Below are positions 40,015 through 62,390 of a stretch of DNA of 64,000 bases, in pieces. Each line of letters starts with the position of its first letter. The first letter of the stretch is position 1. The translations under genes were made by a program, and so were the position numbers. The stretch comes from Escherichia coli (lineage in GTDB: Bacteria > Pseudomonadota > Gammaproteobacteria > Enterobacterales > Enterobacteriaceae). Location: the NCBI RefSeq assembly GCF_030013595.1, contig NZ_CP122771.1; one strand, written 5' to 3'. The notes under the pieces were generated by a model. It worked only from the letters and a program-made list of their open reading frames with translations, ran no database searches and had not been told where the DNA came from.

Positions 40015-40378
40015 TTTTCTTTTCCGACAAAGGATGTCGCCGGGCTCCTCTTTTTACTGCGCCGGCTGACGCGGCGCGGCAGGAACGCTGCCTGTGGTCA
40101 GTATCCCGCGTCCGGCCGGGCACGGGACGGGCGCTTTTACCGCTCCCGGCTGGCGTCGGTGGCAGTGTACGCCAGCCCGTCGCCCTTTTCTGATGAACGC
40201 CCTTCAAGCCGCTTTCGCGGCATATCCTCGCCGTCAAACAGACGACGGCTGCGGTATTCCACGGTCGGCCTGACCCGTTATCGGACGCGGTGAACAGCCC
40301 ACAGGCCGCGGGGAACGGGCGCCACAGGGGCGCCCTCCCGGTGCTCTCTGCTGAAGCAGAAGTGAGAGGAGAATTCCC
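40015..40378 (+). repeat. Leading-region direct repeat family B, copy 1 (about 360 bp, includes RBS of downstream gene)
   Basis: Near-identical to 41338-41687; begins after stbB terminator hairpin; ends at ATG of 40379 ORF. Confidence 0.85.
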
Positions 40379-41305: not shown

Positions 41306-41337
41306 AGTATGACGGAGACGGGCGGGCAACCGCCCGT

Positions 41338-41687
41338 TTCTTTTCCGGTAAAGGATGTCGCCGTGCTCCTCTTTTTACTGCGCCGGCTGACGCGGCGCGG
41401 CATAAACGCTGCCTGTGGTCAGTGTCCCGCGTCCGGCGGGCACGGGACGGACGCTTTTACCGCTCCCGGCTGGCGTCAGTGACAGTGTACGCCAGCCCGT
41501 CGCCCTTTCTGATGAACGCCCTTCAAGCCGCTTTCGCGGCATAGCCTTGCCGTCAAACAGACGACGGCTGCGGTATTCCACGGTCGGCCTGACCCGTTAC
41601 CGGACGCGGTGAACAGCCCACAGGCCGCGGGGAACGGGCACCACAGGGGTGCCCTCCCGGTGCCCTCTGTAAGAGAAGGAGGCTTTT
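41338..41687 (+). repeat. Leading-region direct repeat family B, copy 2
   Basis: Near-identical to 40015-40378; ends at ATG of methyltransferase gene. Confidence 0.85.
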
Positions 41688-43869: not shown

Positions 43870-44281
43870 TGATGGCGGGGAAAATCCCCGCCTTTTTCCT
43901 GCCGGTCCCCGGACAGAGCACAAAGGAAGTCGCCGCCGGCTCCGCTTTACCCGGCCATGCAGGCATGGCCTTGTGGGTTTTCAGTTATGTGGCCACAGTG
44001 TCGTGTGCGGGCTGTGCCGTGCCTCCATCTTAGCCGGGCTGGCGTTGATGCAAGGGTACGCTTCGCCGCTGCGGTCACCCGGTCCCTCCTTCCCGTCTGC
44101 CGTGATTTTCCGGTCGTTCACCCGCTCAGATTTCGCGGTCTCACCCTCCAACTCCCGCCAGCCGTGTGCGTCAGGCTGCGGCTTCCCTTGCGCCCTGTGC
44201 ATCCCCGCCTTATCGCCCGGCTTTTATGGAGGCACGGCACCGCCCGGTGTCGCGGAATATGTGAACAACGGAGGAAATCCC

Positions 44282-44707
44282 ATGCAGTATGCAAAATCTG
44301 TCATTCTGAACGTTGAAGAGTGCGACCGTCTGTCTTTTCTGCCTTACCTGTTTGGCAACGATTTTCTGTATGCCGAGGCATCTGTGTACGCGCTGGCGAA
44401 AAAAATGATGCCGGAATATGAAGGCGGATTCTGGCACTTCATCCGCCTGCCGGACGGTGGCGGTTACATGATGCCGGATGGCGACCGTTTTCATCTGGTC
44501 AACGGTGAAAACTGGTTTGACCGTACGGTCAGCGCCGATGCCGCAGGCATCATTCTGACCTCCCTTGTGATTAACCGCCAGTTGTGGCTGTACCACGACA
44601 GCGGGGATGCGGGACTGACACACCTGTACCGGATGCGCGATGCGCAGTTGTGGAGCCACATCGAATTTCACCCCGAATGTAACGCGATTTACGCGGCACT
44701 GGACTGA
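44282..44707 (+). CDS. ardB: ArdB/KlcA-like antirestriction protein
   Basis: 141 aa starting [33 protein letters not shown]; recognised as ArdB/KlcA family from memory. Confidence 0.75.
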
Positions 44708-45364: not shown

Positions 45365-45592
45365 TACAGAGGCAGGCGGTGGAGGCCGCCTGTCAGCCCG
45401 CGCGAAAACCCCTGGCAGGCTGGCGCCTGCCGGAAGGGAAGCGGGCCACGCTGGCGCGTCGCCCGTTACCCTTCCCGTTTGTGATGTGTCCGGAATGTTT
45501 TTTTCTGATGGTATGACCCTGTTCCTGTTGTTGTTGTTGTTCTTTTCTCTGCTGCCCTGATTCTGACTACTGCAGTGTTGTCCTGTCTGCCT

Positions 45593-46165
45593 GCGCACCT
45601 TCGGCTCCCGGCTGCCTGGCGGCATCCGGTCGTCAGGCCCGACTCCGACAGGCAGCTGCTGGCGCACCCGCCAGTCTCCGCCGAACCCGCTGGCGCGGTT
45701 TCGGGCTGTCGCTACGGTCCGATGCGTGAAAACCCCGGGCTTGCAGCGACCGTTCCGGTCGCGCCACCCTTGTCGCGCCGTGGCCTGCGCTCCCGGCATC
45801 CCGGCAAAAGGCCGCCGGGATGTAAGGCGCAACGCCGTTTCGCGCACGCGCTCTCCGTCGTTGCGGCGGGTCCCTGCTCATTGCCTGCCGGGTGCCACAC
45901 ACCCGTATGAGTCCCTGTCGCCGGGGGCTGATACAGCCACAACCTGCCGCACTGACTGTCCAGGGTAAATGAACAGCCCACAAAATTTTTTACCCAAAAC
46001 CCGGTAAAAAATTTTGCGTTCTGCCCGGGACAGGTGCGTCAGGCCGTGGCAGTGATGCCCCTTGCGGCGAAGGTTCTCAAACGGGTGAAGTTCATACCAC
46101 AGGGAATACAGCAGCAGGTTCCCGCGAAACGTCAAAACCGCGGCTCCCGAAACTCAACGGGTGAT
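45593..46165 (+). repeat. Frpo-like leading-region repeat, copy 1 (hairpin 45979-46018)
   Basis: About 570 bp GC-rich unit also at 49012-49465 and 59340-59925; 14-bp perfect stem caaaattttttacc/ggtaaaaaattttg. Confidence 0.8.
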
Positions 46166-46395
46166 GTTCTTTAAAAATCAGGATTTATTTCAGGCTCCGG
46201 CAATATGCATTTATTTGTTCTGTCAGTCATCCGGCTGGCAGGTAATGAGAACGCAGGAACAGAAGGAGGAAAACACCGGAGAACGTCAGACGCAGATATG
46301 AAAAAAGCAGGTCAGGGACCTGCTTAATCCACACCGCAGAGACTGCACGAACAGTCTTTACGGTTTCATTAATTAACGTCATAAGAGGCTAAATT

Positions 46396-46626
46396 ATGAC
46401 AGTAAGTATTGTTTCACCTTCCGCAGCGGCTGTAAAGCCCCGCCGTCATCCCCGTTTCAGACGCGAAGACATCCCCGCGCCGGAAATTGACCCCGTGCTG
46501 AAAGCCTTCGGGCGACACATTGCCCGGAGTTTTCACCGGGGGCGTGGTGTACACATCCCCGCCATGAAAAACACGACCTTCGGGCAGGTGCTCCGCACAC
46601 TCGAACTGAAACGCGCTTTTAACTGA
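46396..46626 (+). CDS. Hypothetical small protein
   Basis: 76-aa ORF downstream of Frpo-like copy 1. Confidence 0.4.
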   Translation: MTVSIVSPSAAAVKPRRHPRFRREDIPAPEIDPVLKAFGRHIARSFHRGRGVHIPAMKNTTFGQVLRTLELKRAFN

Positions 46627-46677
46627 TGAGGTGAGCCGCCCCGCGAGGGGCGGCAACAGACGGAAGGAGAACATTTT

Positions 46678-48039
46678 ATGACATTAGCAGCAATCACCAT
46701 GACCGCCCCGGAAGCCGCCAGCCCTGTGCAGATGTACCGCGCGACCTACTCACCGGATGACAACAAACTGCGCCTGTATGCCGTGTCACGTCTTGACCCG
46801 GAGACGTATAAAAAAGTGCATGATGCCGGTTTCCGCTGGGCACCAAAACAGGAGCTGTTTGTCGCGCTAGCCTGGACACCGGGCCGGGAAGACGTGCTCC
46901 TCTCACTTGCCGGAGAGATTGAGGATGAAGACAGCACGCTCGCTGAACGTCAGGAAGCACGGGCGGAGCGGTTTACCGGATACAGCGGAAAGCGGGCCAG
47001 TGAATCCGCACAGGCACTTGATGAAGTGGAAAGACTGGCCGCGATGATCCCGCCCGGTCAGCCCATTCTTGTGGGGCATCACAGCGAACGCCGCACCCGT
47101 CGTGATGCGCAGCGTATTGAAAACGGCATGAAACGAGCAGTGATGCTCTTTGAACGTGCGGAATACTGGGAAGAGCGGGCGCGGTCGGCACGGCTTCACG
47201 CGAAGTATAAAGAACGTCCGGACGTTCGCTGGCGTCGCATCAAAAAAATCGAAGCTGATTTGCGCAAGGCTGAAAAGACCATCGCACAGTCGCAGAAATA
47301 TCTGACGATGTGGCGGGCTGAATCGCTGGATCTGAATATGGCAAAATTCATCAGCAGTTATGACCGTATCAGTGCCTGTTTCCCGCTGGATACGTATCCG
47401 CGCCCGGCAGAAAAAAGCCAGTATGAAGGGAGCCGGTCGTTATGGTCGGCCCTGGATGATGACATCATCACCACGGAGCAGGCCCGCGAAATTGCGATCC
47501 GCTGTCATGAACGGCAGATTCAGCATCAACAACGCTGGGTTAACCACTATCAGAACCGCCTGATCTATGAGCGTACCATGCTGGACGAAAGCGGCGGCGT
47601 GGTTACCCGGACACAGGATTTTGAGCCGGGCGGACAGGTTTTCAGCCGGGGCGAGTGGCTGACCATCATCCGTGTGAACAAAAGCAACGGGGCGGTGAGT
47701 TCAGTCACAACGCCGAATTACAGTTTCCTCGGGTACAGCGGCACGATGAAAGTGACGCCCGATCGCATCACGGACTACAAAGCACCATCGGCAGAAGAGG
47801 CTGCCGTCGCCAGCCAGGCCGCGAAGCGTCCGCCGGTAGTCAACTATCCGGGGGAAGGTTTCCGGGAAATGACAAAGGCACAGTGGGCCGCCCTGCCCCG
47901 GGACTGTAAGGCCGTGCGCAGTGTGGCAGAAGCAGAAGACCACGGGGCATACCGCTACCGCCGCACAATGGACAATAATTTCCGTCTGGTGAATGTGTAT
48001 ATCACCGACATGAAAATTACGGAAATCCCACAGAAATAA
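46678..48039 (+). CDS. Conserved leading-region hypothetical protein
   Basis: 453-aa ORF with GGAGAA RBS. Confidence 0.6.
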   Translation: MTLAAITMTAPEAASPVQMYRATYSPDDNKLRLYAVSRLDPETYKKVHDAGFRWAPKQELFVALAWTPGREDVLLSLAGEIEDEDSTLAERQEARAERFTGYSGKRASESAQALDEVERLAAMIPPGQPILVGHHSERRTRRDAQRIENGMKRAVMLFERAEYWEERARSARLHAKYKERPDVRWRRIKKIEADLRKAEKTIAQSQKYLTMWRAESLDLNMAKFISSYDRISACFPLDTYPRPAEKSQYEGSRSLWSALDDDIITTEQAREIAIRCHERQIQHQQRWVNHYQNRLIYERTMLDESGGVVTRTQDFEPGGQVFSRGEWLTIIRVNKSNGAVSSVTTPNYSFLGYSGTMKVTPDRITDYKAPSAEEAAVASQAAKRPPVVNYPGEGFREMTKAQWAALPRDCKAVRSVAEAEDHGAYRYRRTMDNNFRLVNVYITDMKITEIPQK

Positions 48040-48085
48040 GGTATATCCCCCCGGGAAATCCCCGGGGGATGACGGAGATAATGAC

Positions 48086-48649
48086 ATGCACAGTCAGTTA
48101 AGAGAACGTATCCGGCTGATGCGCGCAAGGCTGGATAACGCCGCGCCGGTTGCTGAAATCCGGGCTGAATCTCAGCTTTTTGTGACTCCTGCCCCGGTCT
48201 GTGATCGCCTGGTGACGCTGGCGGAGATCAGCAACCGTGATCACATTCTGGAACCCTCTGCCGGCACCGGGGCCATACTGCGGGCGATTCGGGATACCGC
48301 GCCGGGGGCCATGTGTGATGCGGTGGAAATCAACAGCGGGCTGGTCCGGTATCTGCGGGAAAATTTTAACGGTGTCAGGGTTCAGTGTGGCGACTTCATG
48401 GAATGGCAGCCGGTGCAGTATTACAGCCGGGTTATCATGAATCCGCCGTTCAGCCACGGGCAGGATATCCGGCATATCCTGCGGGCCTTTTCCCTGTTGC
48501 GTCCGGGTGGCGTGCTGGTCGCCGTCTGTCTCAACGGACCACGCCAGCAGGAGAAGCTGTTGCCGTTTTCTGACGTCCGCGAGGAGCTGCCGCGCGGCAC
48601 GTTTGCTTATACCCGTGTTCCGACGATGATTATTCGTCTGCGGGCCTGA
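48086..48649 (+). CDS. Small orphan N6-adenine DNA methyltransferase-like protein
   Basis: 187 aa; SAM-binding EPSAGTG followed by NPPF catalytic motif. Confidence 0.75.
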   Translation: MHSQLRERIRLMRARLDNAAPVAEIRAESQLFVTPAPVCDRLVTLAEISNRDHILEPSAGTGAILRAIRDTAPGAMCDAVEINSGLVRYLRENFNGVRVQCGDFMEWQPVQYYSRVIMNPPFSHGQDIRHILRAFSLLRPGGVLVAVCLNGPRQQEKLLPFSDVREELPRGTFAYTRVPTMIIRLRA

Positions 48650-48830
48650 AGACGCCGGGCAGGCGGGAGGATAAATGCCTGTCTGTCCGCGCCGGGAAAA
48701 GACCGCGCGCCGGTGGCGCTGAAAGGGGCCGCGCTGACGCGCCGCCCCTTTCATTACGCGGACGTTCTGACGGGGGCTTCTGTCTTTTCAGACCTGTCAT
48801 TTGCCTGTTACTGATGATGTTGTTGTTCCT

Positions 48831-48866
48831 GCTACTGCTACTGCTACTGCTACTGCTACTGCTACT
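48831..48866. repeat. Hexanucleotide microsatellite (gctact)x6
   Basis: Direct reading; related (gtt)x5 run at 45523-45542 in the equivalent position before Frpo-like copy 1. Confidence 0.85.
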
Positions 48867-49011
48867 GTTCTTCTTTTTTCTGATGCTCTCATTACTGTCT
48901 GTTTTGTTGTTCTCCTGCTTATGCCTTTTCCGGGCGTCCCCCTGGCGGGGCGGGCTGTCGTGAACGGAGCCAGCGAAGCTGTCTCCGCCCTGGCGGGCTT
49001 CCATCCCTGAC

Positions 49012-49465
49012 GCCAAACCCCCTGGCTTGCAGCGACCGTTCCGGTCGCGCCGCCTCTGTCGCGCCGTGACCTGCGCTCCCGGCATCCCGGCAAAAGGCCG
49101 CCGGGATGTGAGGGGCAACGCCGTTTCGCGCACGCGCTCTTCGTCGTTGCGGCGGGTGCCTGCCCGTTGTTGTATCCGGTGCCCTGCACCCGTTTAAGCC
49201 CCTGTCGCCGGGGGCAAAGACAGCCACAACCGTCTCCGCCAGTCCAGGGGTGAAATGCACATCCCACAAAAGTTTTTGCCCAAAAGCCGGCAAAAACTTT
49301 TGTGGTCTGCCCCCGGACAGTCGTTTCCGGCCGTGGCAGTGATGCCCCTTGCGGCGAAGGTTCTCAAACGGGTGATGGTTAATACCGGAGGGAACAAACG
49401 GCAGGTCCCCGCAAAACGTCAAAACCGCGGCTCCCGAAACTCAACGGGTGATGGGGGCTGAAAAC
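49012..49465 (+). repeat. Frpo-like leading-region repeat, copy 2 (hairpin 49264-49305), immediately upstream of ssb
   Basis: Perfect 17-bp stem ccacaaaagtttttgcc/ggcaaaaacttttgtgg; unit ends at ssb RBS. Confidence 0.8.
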
Positions 49466-49486
49466 ATCAACAGAAGGAGACACATC

Positions 49487-50017
49487 ATGGCAGTTCGTGG
49501 AATTAACAAGGTCATTCTTGTCGGTCGCCTGGGAAAAGATCCGGAAGTCCGTTACATCCCCAACGGGGGCGCAGTGGCAAACCTGCAGGTGGCCACGTCA
49601 GAAAGCTGGCGTGACAAACAGACGGGGGAGATGCGGGAGCAGACGGAATGGCATCGCGTGGTGTTGTTCGGCAAGCTCGCGGAAGTGGCTGGTGAATATT
49701 TGCGTAAGGGTGCGCAGGTCTACATCGAGGGGCAACTCCGTACCCGTAGCTGGGACGACAACAACGGCGTCACCCGTTACATCACTGAAATCCTTGTTAA
49801 AAACACGGGCACCATGCAGATGCTGGGACGTGCCGCAGGTACTCAGACTCAGCCGGAAGAGGCGCAACAGTTCAGCGGTCAGCCTCAGCCGGAATCACAG
49901 CCGGAACCGAAAAAAGGTGGCGCGAAAACGAAAGGCCGTGGACGTAAGGCCGCGCAGCCGGAGCCTCAGCAGCCGTCTGAACCCGCGTATGACTTCGATG
50001 ACGACATTCCGTTCTAA
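49487..50017 (+). CDS. ssb: Plasmid single-stranded DNA-binding protein
   Basis: [25 protein letters not shown]-fold N-terminus; Gly/Gln/Pro-rich tail ending DDDIPF. Confidence 0.95.
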
Positions 50018-50066
50018 CGAAAGACAGTGACAACCGCCCCGTCCAGTGCGGGGCATCACCGGAGAT

Positions 50067-50306
50067 ATGAGGATGAGCGAATATTTCAGAATATTTCAGG
50101 GGCTGCCTGACGGCTCCTTTACCCGCGAACAGGCTGAAGCCGTTGCCGCACAGTACCGGAATGTCTTTATCGAGGATGATCAGGGAACGCATTTTCGCCT
50201 GGTTGTCCGCAATAACAGTGGCCTGGTCTGGCGTACCTGGAATTTTGAGGACGGTGCCGGGTACTGGATGAACCATGTCATCCGGAATTTCGGCATTCTT
50301 AAGTAA
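50067..50306 (+). CDS. Hypothetical small protein
   Basis: About 80-aa ORF downstream of ssb; start approximate. Confidence 0.5.
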
Positions 50307-53566: not shown

Positions 53567-55138
53567 TTACTGAGAGGTCAGATCAACTTTCCAGGGCAAC
53601 AGATCGCGTACCCGGTTTGCCGGCCAATCCTGGATATGCTCAATGACGTAACGCAGCCATTTTTCTGGTTCCACATTGTTCAGACGGCATGTGCCGATCA
53701 GCGAGTACAACACCGCCGCATGTTCGCCACCGCTGTCGGAACCCGCGAAGAGCCAGTTTTTCCGGCCTACGGCCACTCCCCGTAAGGCGTTCTCTGCGAT
53801 GTTGTTGTCGATTTCCACCCAGCCATTACTGCAGTACACGTTCAGGGCCTCCCACTGTTTCAGCAGGTATGCGAACGCTTTTGCCGTATCCGAGTGACGC
53901 GACAGTGTTTTCATCTGTTCCTGTATCCAGTCATACAGTGACTGCATCAGTGGAGCCGCTCTGGCTTTTCTTGCTGCCAGACGCTGTTCTGCTGAACATC
54001 CCCGGACTTCTGCCTCGATGACATACAGTTCACCGATACGCTGCAGGGCTTCCGTGGTGATGTCGGTTGGCACTCTTGCATGCACATCGTGGATTTTTCT
54101 CCGGGCATGGGCCATACACGCGGCTTCCGTTATTCTGCCGGATTCGTATAACGCCCGGTAACCACCGTAAGCATCTGCCTGAAGCACACCGCTGTAACCG
54201 GCCAGGTGATTCTGTGGATGGATACCTTTCCGGTCCGGGCTGTACGCGAACCAGACCGCCGGGGGCATCTGTGAACCGGCGTTACGGTCATCACGGACAT
54301 AGACCCACAGCCGGGCAGTTCTTGTTTTACCACTGCCCGGCTCCTGGACCGGAACGGGGATATCATCCGCATGGACTTTACCGGGCATCAGCACATACTG
54401 GCGCAGCACGTCATACAGCGGCTCCAGCAGTTCAGCAACGGCACCGGTCCAGCGCCCCAGCGTGGCGCGGCTCAGTTCCACGCCCTGACGAAGGTATATT
54501 TCTGACTGGCGGTATAACGGCAGATGGTCTGCATACTTCCCGGTGACGATATGAGCCAGAAGCCCCGCTCCGGCATAACTGCGTGCAATGGGTTTTGAAG
54601 GTACTGGTGCCTGCACGATATGGTCGCACCGGCAACAGGCCAGTTTCGGACGTTGTGTTTCGATAACCTTAAAAGCGCTGCTGATAAGCTCCAGTTGCTC
54701 TGACACATCACACCCCAGAGGACTGAGGTCACCACCACAGGCCGGGCAGCATTCCTCTTCCGGCCGGATGACCCGGGTTTCACGGGGAAGTGAGGCCGGT
54801 AACGGCTTACGGGCTGAAGACTGGCGCAGGGCGGATGGCAGTACCGGGTCATATTGCTCATCCAGCGTTTCCGCCATTTCTTCCTGAAGTGCGCTGATTC
54901 GCTCCTGGGCTTCCTGTATCTGCCGTTCGGTTTTAGCGCGAAGTTTTTCTGAGCTTTTACCGAACTGCATGCGCTGCAGTTTCGCAACCAGCGCCTTCAG
55001 CCGGTTGATTTCGGAAGCATAAGCCGCCACCCGCTGTGAGAGCAGGCGGTTGTATTTCGCCATCTGGCGGATGGTGTCCTGTTGCGTCTGCAACAGTGCC
55101 CGCAGGCGGGCATTCTCATGAGCAAGTGAGGTGTCCAT
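53567..55138 (-). CDS. IS66-family transposase (OrfC)
   Basis: 523 aa with N-terminal coiled coil, CxxC...CxxC zinc motif and DDE-type core. Confidence 0.9.
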
Positions 55139-55157
55139 ATCCTCACTTTACAACGGG

Positions 55158-55505
55158 TTATATGCGGATGCCAGCGCGTTCCGTTCGTTTCGGGTGCTTC
55201 CAGTCGATGCCTTCGAGAAGCATGGACAACTGAGCCGGAGTAAGGTGAACCTTTCCATCGCGGGTGACCGGCCAGACGAAGCGGCCCCGCTCCAGGCGTT
55301 TGGTGAAGAGGCACAGTCCGTCACTGTCAGCCCACAGCACTTTTATCTGGTCACCCCGGCGTCCGCGGAAGATGAACAGATGCCCGGAGAACGGGTCATC
55401 CTTCAGGACGTTCTGAACTTTTGAGGCCAGGCCGTTAAAGCCATTTCGCATATCGGTGATACCGGCAACCAGCCAGATACGCGAACCGGCAGGGAGAGAT
55501 ATCAT
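55158..55505 (-). CDS. IS66 OrfB (TnpB-like accessory protein)
   Basis: 115-aa ORF with the conserved IS66 OrfB-like N-terminus. Confidence 0.85.
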   Translation of the reverse strand: MISLPAGSRIWLVAGITDMRNGFNGLASKVQNVLKDDPFSGHLFIFRGRRGDQIKVLWADSDGLCLFTKRLERGRFVWPVTRDGKVHLTPAQLSMLLEGIDWKHPKRTERAGIRI

Positions 55506-56155
55506 CAGTGGCTGCTCCCTTTCATTTCGCGGATAAGTGTCTGTAATAACGCCGGTGTCAGTTCACCTTTCAGCCTGAGAGTTCCGGCCGGCAGAACCAG
55601 CTCGCAGCACAGACTGTCTGGCAGTGTATTTATCTGTTCAGGTATCTGCACTGGTGCCGGGATTTTATTATCCGGCTCCGGAGTTAACGTCACGGGAAGT
55701 AGCGATGTTTCATGTTCGCCGGGCGGTTGCAGGCCACCGTTACGCCAGAGATGCCGCCAGTTAAAGAGCAGGTTATCGTTAATTCCATTCTCTCGAGCTA
55801 TTTGTGCGACACAAGCACCGGGTAAAAGAGTTTGCTGAACCAGTCTCCATTTAAACTCCGGTGAAAATCGGTTCCGGCGGGGTTTCTCTGCTTTCACAGG
55901 CTGAGTCACGGTCGGGGCTGAAGGGTATCGCCCCGGGAAAAGAGCCCGGGCCAGTTGCCCGCAGGAATATTCACCGGAAAGAGGCCAGTCAGTGAATACC
56001 TGGTGAAATCGCCTCACCAGAGAAAAAATGGCGGTTTTGCTGACACCGGTCTGCGCAGAAATGCGCGGGTACGACAGTGACTCGTCAAATCTCAGCTGTA
56101 GCACACGCAGGATCAATTCCGGATTGTCTGCCAGTACCGCTTTTCGTGCATTCAT
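55505..56155 (-). CDS. IS66 OrfA-like HTH protein
   Basis: 216-aa ORF start-overlapping orfB; longer than typical OrfA. Confidence 0.7.
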   Translation of the reverse strand: MNARKAVLADNPELILRVLQLRFDESLSYPRISAQTGVSKTAIFSLVRRFHQVFTDWPLSGEYSCGQLARALFPGRYPSAPTVTQPVKAEKPRRNRFSPEFKWRLVQQTLLPGACVAQIARENGINDNLLFNWRHLWRNGGLQPPGEHETSLLPVTLTPEPDNKIPAPVQIPEQINTLPDSLCCELVLPAGTLRLKGELTPALLQTLIREMKGSSH

Positions 56156-56444
56156 CTTAAATGTCCCTTTACTGCGAAAATGGACATTAGTATCGGAAAC
56201 AGGAAAGGGAGGCGAAAGACGGTTTAAATGAGACGGTTACCGTGATGCGGCAACAATCACATGGATTTCCCGTGAACGGTCTGAATGAGCGGATTATTTT
56301 CAGGGAAAGTGAGTGTGGTCAGCGTGCAGGTATATGGGCTATGATGTGCCCGGCGCTTGAGGCTTTCTGCCTCATGACGTGAAGGTGGTTTGTTGCCGTG
56401 TTGTGTGGCAGAAAGAAGATAGCCCCGTAGTAAGTTAATTTTCA

Positions 56445-56510
56445 TTAACCACCACGAGGCATCCCTATGTCTAGTCCACATCAGGATAGCCTCTTACCGC
56501 GCTTTGCGCA
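56445..56510 (-). ncRNA. sok: Sok-like antisense RNA region (approximate)
   Basis: Position antisense to mok/hok leader directly upstream of hok. Confidence 0.3.
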
Positions 56511-56524
56511 AGGAGAAGAAGGCC

Positions 56525-56683
56525 ATGAAACTACCACGAAGTTCCCTTGTCTGGTGTGTGTTGATCGTGTGTCTCACACTGTTGATATTCACTTATCTGA
56601 CACGAAAATCGCTGTGCGAGATTCGTTACAGAGACGGACACAGGGAGGTGGCGGCTTTCATGGCTTACGAATCCGGTAAGTAG
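56525..56683 (+). CDS. hok: Hok/FlmA type I toxin
   Basis: 52-aa peptide [52 protein letters not shown] read directly (below ORF-track length cutoff); overlapping mok-like frame 56467-56679. Confidence 0.85.
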
Positions 56684-56994
56684 CAACCTGGAGGCGGGCG
56701 CAGGCCCGCCTTTTCAGGACTGATGCTGGTCTGACTACTGAAGCGCCTTTATAAAGGGGCTGCTGGTTCGCCGGTAGCCCCTTTCTCCTTGCTGATGTTG
56801 TACGGGCATGAACAACCTGACTTCAGGAAGGTCGTTTCCCTTCAGGAACGGGGATGAACGCGCGCCTGCGGCGCCCGTTCTTTTCCCCCGCCTTCTCTGG
56901 TTATGGCCTGTCAGAAATCACATCACCTTCCCTGTGATTATTCTCTTTTTCTTCCTGCTCTGATTCTGACTACTGCAGTGTTGTCCTGTCTGCC

Positions 56995-59339
56995 GGGTCG
57001 GGTAGCAGCGGCACATTGCTGCGCCGCCGCCCCCTAAGAACGGAGCGTGCGAGTTTTCCCGCACTCCGCTCAAGCCTTTATAAGTGCTTTCGGTGAGCAC
57101 CGGCTTCCCTGCTGTGTAACTGTCGGTGGCAGTTCGGATGTAACAACTCGAGATTGGTCAGTTCGTCACTGCCGCCCATAACTTTCCTGATCCGGTGATG
57201 TATATTCCATCCGGTCTGGTTGGTTATGAGTTGTCCGCACTGCGGACAGTGTTTCCCCTGCCTCTTCCAGAGTTGAACTACTGTCTTCATCTTCTTTGAT
57301 TTGCCTTTCCAGATTAGATCCAGACGACGTTCAAAGTAGATTTCCATTCCGGGGGTGTATGGTGTTGCTTCGCCTTTGATTTTTATATGGCGCTTTATCG
57401 GTGTTTCCATTGCCCGGAAGAGTGTCAGAATTTTCCCTTCCGGGGTTATGGCTTTAAAGATCCAGCGCCTGCCTTCAAAGGAGAAGTATCGTCCGGCGAT
57501 CCACCGCAATCCTTTCCGGGGATGCCGTCTTACACACCATCGCCATATAGCTCGCCAGATTTGGGTGTCGACATAATTAAATGTTTCTTTCGCCACGACG
57601 TGTCGGTGATAGGTAGCCCATCCCCGGATCACCGGGTTTAGCTGGCCTATCAGTTTCCATGCCGGGAGCGTCGGATTGCGTTTAATTATTTCTCTGACTT
57701 TACAGAGGAAGTTCTTCAGGTTTTTCTTCGACGGTTTAATCAGCATTTTACCGTTGTACTTCCTGACGTTCTGCCCTAAAAAGTCGAAGCCTTTATCTAT
57801 ATGTGTGATCGCTGTTTTTTCTTCCGACAGTTCCAGCCCTCGTTCGCGCATGAAAGCTGCAATCAGTGGTCTGACCTCATTTTCCAGCAATTCACGGGAG
57901 CTGCCTGAACAGATGAAATCATCAGCATATCTCACATAATTCACCTGGTGCTTTGCACTGTGATAACCACTTTTCCTGAACGTTTGCATCAGTTCCTTCT
58001 CCAGTCCGTCCAGAGCCATGTTGGCGAGAACAGGGGATATGATGCCTCCCTGCGGTGTCCCGCTGTTCGTATGGTTAAACACGCCTCTTTCCATGTAACC
58101 TGCTTTCAACCATTTTTTAAGCAGTCTCCTGTCCATCGGAATATGGGAAAGCAGCCAGTCATGGCTGATGTTATCGAAACACCCTTTAATATCGCCCTCC
58201 AGTATCCATTTGGGCGATACTTTCTGGCTCATCCGCAGAAAAATGGACTCAATGGCGTCATGCGTGCTGCGCATTGGTCTGAAACCATAGCTGTTATGGT
58301 CAGCAGTGGTCTCGGATACGGGTTCCAGAGCCAGCAGCCACAGTGCCTGCATGGCCCGGTCCCTCATTGTGGGTATGCCCAGCGGTCGCGTTTTGCCGTT
58401 TGATTTTGGGATATGTATTCGCCGTAGTGGCTGTGGCCTGTAACCACACAGATTCAGGCTGCATATTCCTTCCCATTTCTCCTTCGGTGTGTGCCATATT
58501 TTTCCGTCAATACCGGGTGTCCTTTTACCGGTATTTTCAGTTACACGCCTGACAGCCACGGCTTTGCCGGAGAATGAGCGGGTGAGGATGCGCTGTAGTT
58601 CTCTGACCTGCCGCCATTGTTGCTGTCGGGTTGCCTTTGCAATCCGTAACTGTAGCTTTCGCACCCGGGCATGGCATGCTTTCCAGTTTATGGTGTGCCA
58701 GCCTGTCGGGTGGGGTATCGTGGACACACTGATGTGTGTATTCATCTCGCTGATATCCTTTTGACTGCTTTACAGCTTTTCATGCAATTAAAGACCAGAC
58801 GGAAGTCTGCCCGCTTTCGCGTCGGGGAACCTGCCCCGTATCCCGGTTATTACGGCCGGGCATTCGCTTTTTCCGTCCTCCTATGCCCGCACCGCTAACA
58901 GTGTTCCTTGCGGTTCACCTGCCTGTGAGGCAGCGATACGGGTTTACCAGGTTCCGCTTAACATACAGAGGGTCAGGGCGGGTTCTGTCTCTTCACCGGG
59001 GGTCTCTGCGCCCATGTGCTCCCTGTGCGCGAGGTAGCAACCGGACCCCGTACCTTTTGGTTCAGGCCTGTCAGCATCTTTGGCCTGTTGCCGATAACGG
59101 TGTTTATCAACAGTTCACATGTGTTAACCCTTCTGACCAGCCTTGCTCTCCTGCCGCATGATGCTTGCAGCAAGGTAAAGCCCCTCACGGGGCTTTACCC
59201 GGGCTGACGCCCGGCTCTCGTTGTCCCGGGAGCTTCAGACCCCGCCGTTGCCGGCAACGCCTGTCCCGGTAGGCTACAGCTAATGGGATAGCTGGTTTTA
59301 TCAATGTAAAACAATACGTTAAGCGACTTCCTGTCGCAC
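56995..59339 (-). mobile_element. Group II intron, boundaries +/-10 bp
   Basis: 5' end GTGCGACAGG on minus strand; domain V-like hairpin GAGCGGAGTGCGGGAAAACTCGCACGCTCCGTTC near 3' end (+ coords about 57030-57063); encodes RT/maturase/HNH ORF. Confidence 0.8.
57078..58745 (-). CDS. Group II intron-encoded reverse transcriptase/maturase with HNH endonuclease
   Basis: 555 aa; RT motifs incl. YADD (VRYADDFIC); C-terminal CPQCG...H..H HNH. Confidence 0.9.
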   Translation of the reverse strand: MNTHISVSTIPHPTGWHTINWKACHARVRKLQLRIAKATRQQQWRQVRELQRILTRSFSGKAVAVRRVTENTGKRTPGIDGKIWHTPKEKWEGICSLNLCGYRPQPLRRIHIPKSNGKTRPLGIPTMRDRAMQALWLLALEPVSETTADHNSYGFRPMRSTHDAIESIFLRMSQKVSPKWILEGDIKGCFDNISHDWLLSHIPMDRRLLKKWLKAGYMERGVFNHTNSGTPQGGIISPVLANMALDGLEKELMQTFRKSGYHSAKHQVNYVRYADDFICSGSSRELLENEVRPLIAAFMRERGLELSEEKTAITHIDKGFDFLGQNVRKYNGKMLIKPSKKNLKNFLCKVREIIKRNPTLPAWKLIGQLNPVIRGWATYHRHVVAKETFNYVDTQIWRAIWRWCVRRHPRKGLRWIAGRYFSFEGRRWIFKAITPEGKILTLFRAMETPIKRHIKIKGEATPYTPGMEIYFERRLDLIWKGKSKKMKTVVQLWKRQGKHCPQCGQLITNQTGWNIHHRIRKVMGGSDELTNLELLHPNCHRQLHSREAGAHRKHL

Positions 59340-59925
59340 GCGCACCTTCGGCTCCCGGCTGCCTGGCGGCATCCGGTCGTCAGGCCCGACTCCGACAGGC
59401 AGCTGCTGGCGCACCTGCCAGTCTCCGCCGAACCCGCTGGCGCGGTTTCGGGCTGTCGCTACGGTCCGATGCGTGAAAACCCCGGGCTTGCAGCGACCGT
59501 TCCGGTCGCGCCGCCTCTGTCGCGCCGTGGCCTGCGCTCCCGGCATCCCGGCAAAAGGCCGCCGGGATGTAAGGCGCAACGCCGTTTCGCAAACCGCGCT
59601 TCACGTCGTTGCGGCGGGTCCCTGCCCGTTGTTGTGTCCGGTGCCATTCACCTGTTTAAGCCCCTGTCGCCGGGGGCATAGACAGCCACAACCGTCTCCG
59701 CCAGTCCAGGGGTGAAATGCACATCCCGCAAAACTTTTTGCCCAGAAGCAGGCAAAAACTTTTGCGGTCTGCCCCCGGACAGTCGTTTCCGGCCGTGGCA
59801 GTGATGCCCCATGCGGCGAAGGTTCTCAAACAGGTGATGGTGAATACCGGAGGGAACAAAAGGCAGGTCCCCGCAAAACGTCAAAACCGCGGCTCCCGAA
59901 ACTCAACAGATGATGGGGGCTGAAA
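59340..59925 (+). repeat. Frpo-like leading-region repeat, copy 3 (hairpin 59726-59767)
   Basis: Stem ccgcaaaactttttgcc/ggcaaaaacttttgcgg; unit ends at RBS of 59948 ORF. Confidence 0.8.
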
Positions 59926-59947
59926 ACCAGAGAGAGGAGAAAGCAGG

Positions 59948-60235
59948 ATGAGTACCCGAAATATCCACGTTAACACCGCGTCGTACACGCTTCTTGTTGC
60001 CGGGAAGAAAAAAAACACCGGGGAAGAGTGGGACGTCCTGGAATTCAGCAGCCTGACTGAGCTGAAAAAATATCGCAAAAGCCACCCGGAAAAGATGGCC
60101 TTCAGTTATAGCTACGCGCTCAGTCAGGGTGTGGATAAGCAGTTCCGCCATATCAACATTGCGGAAGCCGATCACTTCAAACAGTTCCTGCGTCAGATTA
60201 AGCGTGCCGGCCTCGATATCCGGGCGATCTGCTGA
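59948..60235 (+). CDS. Hypothetical small protein
   Basis: 95-aa ORF with GAGGAG RBS immediately after Frpo-like copy 3. Confidence 0.5.
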   Translation: MSTRNIHVNTASYTLLVAGKKKNTGEEWDVLEFSSLTELKKYRKSHPEKMAFSYSYALSQGVDKQFRHINIAEADHFKQFLRQIKRAGLDIRAIC

Positions 60236-61989: not shown

Positions 61990-62390
61990 TCTGGTGACTT
62001 TATCCGTAAATAATTTAACCCACTCCACAAAAAGGCTCAACAGGTTGGTGGTTCTCACCACCAAAAGCACCACACACTACGCAAAAACAAGTTTTTGCTG
62101 ATTTGCCTTTTAAATCATGTAATTAACAAATGCTATTTATATTTAATAATTCTGAATTATTAAATAGAGAGTCGTTGGCGATCCTGTTACGACCCTATAG
62201 CGACCCTTATTAGGATCAGTACTGACAATTTTCATGAAAAACATTGATATATATTAGGGGCGCCACTAGCGCCGGATCGCATTTTTTTATAGGATGATCC
62301 TAGAGGCGCTGCTAGGAGTGTCTTTCTTACTTGTAAACACTATATGCATATTTATAGTGAAAAGTTCATTGCTTAATTATGAAAGGTTTT
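61990..62390. promoter_or_regulatory. oriT (origin of transfer) with nic region about 62060-62080 on the minus strand
   Basis: Reverse complement of 62030-62082 reads GTAGTGTGTGGTGCTTTTGGTGGTGAGAACCACCAACCTGTTGAGCCTTTTTGTGGAGTGGG, near-identical to the F/R100 nic region as remembered. Confidence 0.8.

Follow-up and report, generated by a model that had tools for sequence, protein, structure and literature searches.

Three Frpo-like units in the leading region of an F-like plasmid: probable class-1 single-stranded DNA promoters with compensatory changes in the hairpin stem

The 64,000-nucleotide stretch of DNA analysed here (the window) carries one GC-rich sequence at three dispersed places, which raises the question of what these units are and on which strand their structure is kept. 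The original prediction took them for Frpo-like elements, promoters that act on single-stranded DNA (ssDNA), and the three copies were borne out by a repeat search, MAFFT, BLAST and nhmmer. They and the gene that follows the second copy are placed as follows:

45593-46166, functional strand minus: copy 1, probable class-1 Frpo/ssi unit (repeat search, BLAST, nhmmer)
49012-49465, minus: copy 2, directly 5' of ssb, at the position of F Frpo2/ssp1b
59340-59927, minus: copy 3, directly 5' of a 95-aa ygeA-like ORF (59948-60235) and a DUF932 gene
49487-50017, plus: plasmid ssb, heading the gene set of copy 2 and followed by DUF905, ParB-like (yfjB), psiB and psiA genes

The repeat search matched 45593-45843 with 59340-59590 at 98% and 49133-49432 with 59595-59894 at 94%, and gave 63% without gaps for 45846-46145. 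BLAST extended the units to 45541-46181, about 49015-49465 and 59340-59927, with identities of 93.8% between copies 2 and 3, 85.1% between copies 1 and 2 and 87.4% between copies 1 and 3. A family-profile nhmmer search of the 64 kb returned exactly three copies (E-values from 5e-99 to 5e-104), which MAFFT likewise recovered. Copies 1 and 3 have in common about 137 nt of extra upstream sequence that copy 2 lacks, and a further 51 nt (45541-45591, equal to 56944-56994) that a group II intron now splits off from copy 3. On the gene side, copy 2 ends 22 nt before the ATG of ssb at 49487 (ribosome-binding site at about 49473-49479) and 21 nt separate copy 3 from the start codon at 59948, so that both copies end at the ribosome-binding site of the following gene as had been predicted. 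The end of copy 1 lies about 230 nt from the next ORF (46396), the first of a module encoding a 76-aa ORF, a DUF3560 protein and a SAM-methyltransferase (46396-48649).

The plasmid setting defines the strand. Eleven Rfam matches at the gathering threshold over the whole window, none of which falls inside the three units, identify it as part of an F-like/IncF-type conjugative plasmid. The landmarks are:

62.9 kb: traJ 5'UTR/FinP (Rfam)
other Rfam matches: antisense RNAs to traI and traG, CopA, and two copies of sok
62064-62080, minus: oriT nic-region sequence GTAGTGTGTGGTGCTTT (sequence match)

The closest plasmid record is CP122741 (IncF), with 99.2% identity over 45400-50100, and the gene names used around the three units come from the annotation of this near-identical plasmid. 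Its gene order is antirestriction, DUF1380, copy 1, 76-aa ORF, DUF3560, class I SAM methyltransferase, copy 2, ssb, DUF905, ParB-like, psiB, an IS66 element, hok/sok, a group II intron, copy 3, 95-aa ORF, DUF932, SLT transglycosylase, oriT, traM and traJ. We take GTAGTGTGTGGTGCTTT to be the R100-type nic site on the basis of the TraI binding sites of F and R100. As it lies on the minus strand, the minus strand is the transferred one and enters in the order from 62 kb to 45 kb, with copy 3 about 2.1 kb from nic. The leading genes flanking the units (ssb, psiB, ygeA-like and DUF932) are all on the plus strand, for which the minus strand is the template.

Homology gives the units a name. The minus strand of copies 2 and 3 reads as ssiD of D90178, as given in Supplementary Table 2 of Samuel et al. 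2024. Copy 3 is 97.4% identical to F Frpo1 (the copy 5' of ygeA; NC_002483), while F Frpo2 (the copy 5' of ssb; NC_002483) is 92.5% identical to copy 1 and 86.8% to copy 2. All three units are homologous to F ssiD/Frpo, lie in the leading region upstream of and co-oriented with leading genes, carry the hairpin on the transferred strand, and contain a sequence of about 330 nt that folds as a long imperfect ssDNA stem-loop. Compensatory changes, which are not part of the published descriptions, are found both within the window and across the family. On homology, strand, place, fold and covariation, together with the promoter activity published for relatives, we consider it very probable that the units are class-1 ssDNA promoters (Frpo/ssi) of the transferred strand, their transcription being assigned by analogy. 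The Frpo-like identity put forward originally is supported by the ssiD homology, the transferred-strand location, the co-oriented genes and the covariation.

The relatives are well documented. According to Masai & Arai 1997, as reported in PMC9849209 and PMC7690428, Frpo serves in vitro as a sigma70 promoter and primer-RNA site in its ssDNA form only. When Frpo1 or Frpo2 is deleted, YgeA, Ssb and YfjA are no longer made early in transconjugants (PMC9849209), and an Frpo2 fragment gives effective expression of an anti-CRISPR gene only from the leading transferred strand (PMC11541004). The ColIb-P9/pESBL homologues ssi1-3 are described as 'class 1' ssDNA promoters, with starts in pESBL confirmed by 5'RACE (PMC12672017). 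Initiation by sigma70 RNA polymerase on the single-stranded form alone, with a transient zygotic induction of the genes downstream, is reported for the F and IncI1 homologues (PMC9849209, PMC12672017, PMC11541004). Survey data count 13,089 homologues in 6,006 conjugative elements (PMC11541004). Three copies have long been known in ColIb-P9 (Bates 1999, as cited in PMC12672017 and PMC3817090), and a 2013 study of IncI plasmids described leading-region modules flanked by three Frpo repeats (PMC3817090). The element is thus already known, and the observation of three repeats is a rediscovery. A PLSDB search with copy 2 found at least 14,969 places in at least 5000 plasmids, about three per record, so that three copies represent the ordinary IncF state and no peculiarity of this plasmid. 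The segment from copy 1 to copy 2 is covered to at least 80% in 3,867 PLSDB records.

Compared with F, where Frpo1 (ssiD, ssp1a) and Frpo2 (ssp1b) have the same strand, the same positions near oriT and the same long imperfect hairpin, copy 3 corresponds to Frpo1 and copy 2 stands at the position of Frpo2. F has two copies, whereas the present plasmid has a third, copy 1, with the 76-aa ORF/DUF3560/methyltransferase module that is absent from F; the common upstream sequence of copies 1 and 3 (about 137-190 nt) is also missing in F. The IncI1 plasmid ColIb-P9 likewise has three dispersed copies heading leading-region operons (ssi1-ssi3, R1-R3 of pO26-CRL125). Its upper hairpin is homologous (TGTCCGGGG, AT-rich tip, CCCTGGAC, then TGTGG) and its folds reach -100 to -113 kcal/mol, but its lower stem is not alignable, BLAST matches just about 80-115 nt of the core, and the downstream genes differ (ardA). 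Class 2 (ssp2/'Frpo3') and class 3 (ssp3) of F and pESBL follow the same logic, with a large transferred-strand hairpin before anti-restriction or methylase operons; the class 2/3 candidates of the window have no sequence similarity to the class-1 copies by self-BLAST and nhmmer.

These candidates are of two kinds. One large hairpin (44008-44246, from the fold of 43870-44285 on the minus strand; -101 kcal/mol, z -4.6) lies 5' of an ArdB/KlcA-like antirestriction gene, matches the position of F class 2/ssp2/'Frpo3' and has visible homology to 'Frpo' 4' of Samuel et al. The other kind consists of two GC-rich direct repeats (40016-40350 and 41337-41669, 93-96% identical) with internal inverted repeats and a transferred-strand fold of about -89 kcal/mol per 300 nt, located upstream of a DUF1281 gene (about 40401) and of a DNA methylase gene (about 41688), respectively. 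From their folds and places, these two copies look like class-3-type ssDNA promoter candidates.

What structure would the entering strand adopt? Folding of the minus strand yielded the following features:

45837-46153, minus: main imperfect hairpin of copy 1, 116 pairs, -96.7 kcal/mol as ssDNA (two-arm map)
45979-46018: tip stem-loop of copy 1
49100-49431, minus: main imperfect hairpin of copy 2, -103.1 kcal/mol for 49098-49460
49264-49305: tip stem of copy 2, 17 bp, perfect, loop GGCTTTTG
59579-59902, minus: main imperfect hairpin of copy 3, -108.2 kcal/mol
59726-59767: tip of copy 3, with one G.G mismatch in the middle of the stem (C.C on the plus strand)

The minus strand of copy 1 forms one continuous imperfect stem-loop in which 46153 pairs with 45837, and all three units give imperfect hairpins of about 320 nt with about 100-116 pairs and -97 to -108 kcal/mol per roughly 357 nt of ssDNA. 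The hairpins first noticed at 45979-46018, 49264-49305 and 59726-59767 are present, and predicted on the transferred strand in every copy, but they are the mere tips of structures about 320 nt long. In each stem the AT-rich tip is perfectly or almost perfectly paired, the 3' arm carries a bulge of 8-13 nt and the lower stem is long; the helix GTCCGGGG/CCCTGGAC is invariant, and a single mismatched bubble opposes GGGGCATCACTGCC on the 5' arm to GGCTGTCTTTGCCCC on the 3' arm. With flanks, the minus strand of copy 2 folds at -138.4 kcal/mol versus -96.4 +/- 4.7 for shuffled sequences (z -8.9). Since the plus strand is also strongly folded (z -7.3), the fold by itself has no power to name the strand. 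The further claim that this is the strongest structured non-coding signal of the window holds for the scanned 36-62 kb, but narrowly, as other transferred-strand hairpins of similar stability occur in the same leading region.

Differences between the three copies, compared on a 100-pair structure, indicate that pairing is preserved. All three compensatory changes reported originally are correct as transferred-strand pairs. The pair 49303/49266 is A-T in copy 2 versus G-C at 59765/59728 in copy 3, and 46011/45986 (T-A) and 46005/45992 (A-T) of copy 1 are G-C in copy 2 (49297/49272 and 49291/49278); the third of these, halfway along the tip stem, shows compensation when copies 1 and 2 are compared and corresponds to the G.G mismatch of copy 3. 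Seven pairs differ on both sides while remaining paired in all three copies, two of them among those reported and five lower in the stem. Substitutions are sparser in paired than in unpaired columns, both between copies 2 and 3 (2.5% versus 11.9%) and between copies 1 and 2 (14.1% versus 22.6%).

This comparison was extended to 27 copies in transferred-strand orientation from IncF, IncI1, IncK and Klebsiella-type plasmids. The sources include F, a Klebsiella FIIK-type plasmid (four copies), Enterobacter, K. michiganensis, K. pneumoniae, Salmonella diarizonae, Citrobacter, ColIb-P9 (three), IncK pCT (three) and two metagenomic sequences (Samuel et al.), and all 27 fold at -86 to -113 kcal/mol. 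RNAalifold on a MAFFT alignment recovered 30 pairs, a low yield that results from tip indels and the non-homologous IncI lower stem breaking the register, and was replaced by a majority structure from the individual DNA folds. As such a structure is biased towards pairing, we relied on controls with slid partners. Over 100 pairs and 27 sequences, standard pairs fill 84.7% of the cells, compared with 37-50% when partners are slid by one to three columns, and the covariation score is 0.172 against 0.044-0.061 in controls; both figures come from a structure derived from the same, related sequences. Pairs changed on both sides number 37, against 15-21 after sliding and 24.6 +/- 2.7 after shuffling (none of 500 shuffles reached 37), a control that overstates significance because the sequences are related; moreover, copies swap segments by recombination, so that the compensated pairs represent few independent events. 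Covariance across plasmids agrees with what was seen in the window, hairpin pairing being kept by paired changes among the 27 members. The AT-rich tip hairpin is absent in Ksp_11110, Kmic_22537, Kpn_12001, Kpn_19514, Cfre_12001 and insect_5/6, which keep the rest of the stem and have the short GC hairpin GCGCGGTTTACCGCGTGC in its place; the tip is hence dispensable for family membership. A search of genome contigs with the pattern TGTCCGGGGN{35,65}CCCTGGAC hit at least 120 loci, mostly in GC-rich genomes such as Streptomyces; the family-profile nhmmer found no true member among these listed loci, the pattern being too weak.

A conserved structure of this kind could also act as RNA, forming a structured 5' UTR on the plus-sense mRNAs or belonging to an antisense RNA. 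Each unit would be transcribed, partly or wholly, into the leaders of ssb and the remaining operons, the hairpin arm complementary to leader sequence shows greater conservation than the opposite arm, and the plus strand folds well. However, in all 27 copies the template minus strand gives the more stable fold, its mean advantage over the complement being 14.9 kcal/mol; this test is independent of the majority structure used for the pairing counts. G.T wobbles outnumber A.C cells two to one (170 versus 84 among the 27 copies), and a plus-sense RNA would be mismatched at such positions. A minus-sense RNA would share this asymmetry, but the consensus scan gave neither a promoter nor a terminator signal for it, and the units match no Rfam family. 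Strand stability and the G.T excess together argue that selection acts on the fold of the minus strand and not on a plus-sense RNA, and make a role as RNA very improbable. A separate observation concerns the 5' arm, where every unit has a direct repeat, ATCACCCGTTGAG and ATCACCCGTTTGAG (at about 49440-49452 and 49363-49376 on the minus strand of copy 2, with equivalents in copies 1 and 3). It includes TTGAG(A/T) hexamers and is highly conserved in F-, Klebsiella- and metagenome-type copies, with a variable opposite arm.

If the folded minus strand is a promoter, where could RNA polymerase start? Class-1 ssDNA promoters are characterised by -35 and -10 boxes that re-form within the stem, the -10 region being mispaired. 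A scan of the duplex sequence for the sigma70 consensus found no promoter, an uninformative result that is expected for an ssDNA promoter, nor did scoring the transferred strand with weighted hexamers single out an unambiguous one. Two arrangements of candidate boxes, running in opposite directions along the hairpin, are compatible with the stem:

49362-49367 (copy 2), minus, 5' arm: candidate -35 of model P1, TTGAGA
49339-49344 (copy 2), minus, in the mismatched bubble: candidate -10 of model P1, CATCAC, 17 nt on
46075-46080 and 46052-46057 (copy 1), 59824-59829 and 59801-59806 (copy 3): the same candidate P1 motifs
49241-49246 (copy 2), minus, 3' arm: candidate -35 of model P2, TGGACT
45957-45962 (copy 1): candidate -35 of model P2, TGGACA

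P1 would point towards the loop, and its TTGAGA is invariant in 21 of 27 family members with a varying partner arm. P2 would use the 3' arm as the non-template strand, with a -10 box 17-18 nt on in the same bubble (49211-49231), and fire down the 5' arm towards ssb; its -35 candidate lies within CCCTGGAC, which is nearly invariant in the whole family, ColIb-P9 included. The single bubble is flanked, at a distance of 17-18 bp, by one -35-like hexamer on each arm (5/6 match), and the best candidates agree with the consensus at 8 of 12 positions. In Samuel et al. 2024, the functional Frpo2-acrIIA4 construct starts at the equivalent of window position 45911 and does not contain the partner of TTGAGA, which weakly favours P2 over P1; the start of the construct falls on the stop codon of a spurious ORF (equivalent to 45575-45910) and was thus probably not chosen with the hairpin in mind. 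Both models would give plus-sense RNA off the transferred strand, so that the classification is unaffected, and each hairpin may even have two start sites, one per arm and both plus-sense. A third option, a start at the loop with the AT-rich tip as -10 box, was rejected sterically, since the upstream and downstream duplexes would be the same helix.

Taken as ssDNA promoters, the units would work as follows. The minus strand would enter the recipient 5'-first from nic (about 62.07 kb), exposing copy 3, then copy 2 and then copy 1 as ssDNA, and each would snap back into its imperfect hairpin of about 320 nt, the stem imitating a duplex promoter with a mismatched bubble. From what the literature describes, host sigma70 RNA polymerase would bind this hairpin and transcribe the transferred strand before a complementary strand exists. 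Copy 3 would then yield a burst of plus-sense mRNA for the ygeA-like and DUF932 genes and copy 2 one for ssb, DUF905, the parB-like gene, psiB and psiA, and copy 1 may provide mRNA for the 76-aa ORF, DUF3560 and SAM-methyltransferase module. The transcript could also prime synthesis of the complementary strand, as published for relatives, and conversion to duplex would prevent the hairpin from forming and switch the promoter off.

Related solutions exist elsewhere. The minus-strand origin of filamentous phages (M13/f1) uses hairpins of SSB-coated ssDNA that imitate a sigma70 promoter and give a primer RNA, but only a short primer that drives no genes, and it is not known to be related in sequence to the Frpo units. 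The phiX174-type n'-pas and G4-type ssi are short hairpin sets recognised by PriA or DnaG, not by RNA polymerase; the units of the window are homologous to ssiD, which depends on RNA polymerase. The units could instead be mainly ssi signals that prime complementary-strand synthesis in the recipient, with gene expression as a secondary effect. It was as a priming signal that ssiD originally came to light, and the RNA made at Frpo stays behind in RNA-DNA hybrids from which DNA synthesis is primed (Masai & Arai 1997, as reported in PMC7690428), and early conversion near ssp1/Frpo is rifampicin-sensitive in vivo (bioRxiv 10.64898/2026.01.09.698686). The priming and promoter roles are compatible, but each copy abuts the ribosome-binding site of a co-oriented operon and the Frpo deletions abolish early protein production (PMC9849209). 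The placement of three copies at the start of operons is easier to reconcile with expression control than with priming alone, and priming as the main function seems unlikely to us.

The repeats may have a history of exchange as well. At the sites that differ between copies 1 and 3, F Frpo2 (plasmid F 8257-8613) is a clean mosaic, like copy 3 in the gene-proximal 90 or so columns, like copy 1 in both arms of the upper and middle hairpin, and like copy 3 again at the far end. This mosaic points to recombination or gene conversion between copies and fits F having lost the module between copies 1 and 2. It could even be supposed that the units mainly serve recombination, as substrates or as cassette boundaries by which modules of the leading region are shuffled, and are kept by hitch-hiking and not by selection on structure: besides the mosaic and the module missing in F, a 9.7-kb module is bounded by Frpo repeats in IncI plasmids (Venturini 2013, PMC3817090), and the repeats have been noted as substrates of homologous recombination (Couturier 2023, PMC9849209). 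Recombination explains the mosaicism, but not the fewer substitutions in paired columns, the compensated pairs or the strand-specific stability, and it leaves the experimental promoter activity of relatives unexplained; as the main role of the units it is quite improbable. With promoters as the preferred reading, we tentatively propose, at somewhat less than even chances, that copy 1 is a third class-1 ssDNA promoter which places the 76-aa ORF/DUF3560/SAM-methyltransferase operon under zygotic control in most IncF plasmids, that the absence of this operon from F goes back to the origin of F Frpo2 by recombination of a copy 1 type with a copy 2/3 type, and that the units double as recombination joints through which early-expression modules are added or removed.

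Copy 1 has one further peculiarity. The Rfam antisense RNA AS-pc01 (antisense to pHK01_035; 46302-46401, minus), which terminates in a stem and T-run on the minus strand (about 46307-46323), lies in the 230 nt or so that separate copy 1 from the 76-aa ORF beginning at 46396. Given this distance and this intervening RNA, the output of copy 1 to its first ORF may be modulated by AS-pc01.

Database annotation suggests yet another role, since PGAP annotates the equivalents of two 68-aa plus-strand ORFs (49255-49461 and 59717-59923) in CP122741 and other plasmids as 'single-stranded DNA-binding protein'. These ORFs match no NCBIfam model, their equivalent in copy 1 has no start codon and begins at a stop, and they lie inside the hairpin arms, where family indels fall across the ORF stretch. 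On these grounds the protein-coding reading was rejected as having next to no likelihood, and the annotation is probably spurious.

Frpo-type promoters allow anti-SOS, anti-restriction, SSB and methylase genes to be expressed within minutes of entry, before double-stranded DNA is formed, and are central to the establishment of resistance plasmids in new hosts. This role was established in work going back to 1997 and received in vivo confirmation in 2023-2026. The window adds a quantitative demonstration of strand-specific structural selection on the hairpin and illustrates the usual IncF layout, with three copies versus two in F and copies that recombine; these additions leave the current understanding unchanged.

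Finally, mobile elements have settled among the units. An IS66-family element (53567-56155, minus; ORFs of 523, 115 and 216 aa) sits between the psiB/psiA block and the hok/sok locus (sok 56351-56527), and together with a group II intron it lengthens the distance from copy 2 to copy 3 by about 5 kb. The intron (56995-59339, minus) has its insertion point precisely at the upstream border of copy 3, parting 56944-56994 from 59340, stretches that are contiguous in copy 1 (45541-45600). It comprises D1-D4 (59146-59295) and D5-D6 (56997-57073) by Rfam and a 555-aa RT ORF (57078-58745), and is carried by the transferred strand in antisense orientation to the leading genes.
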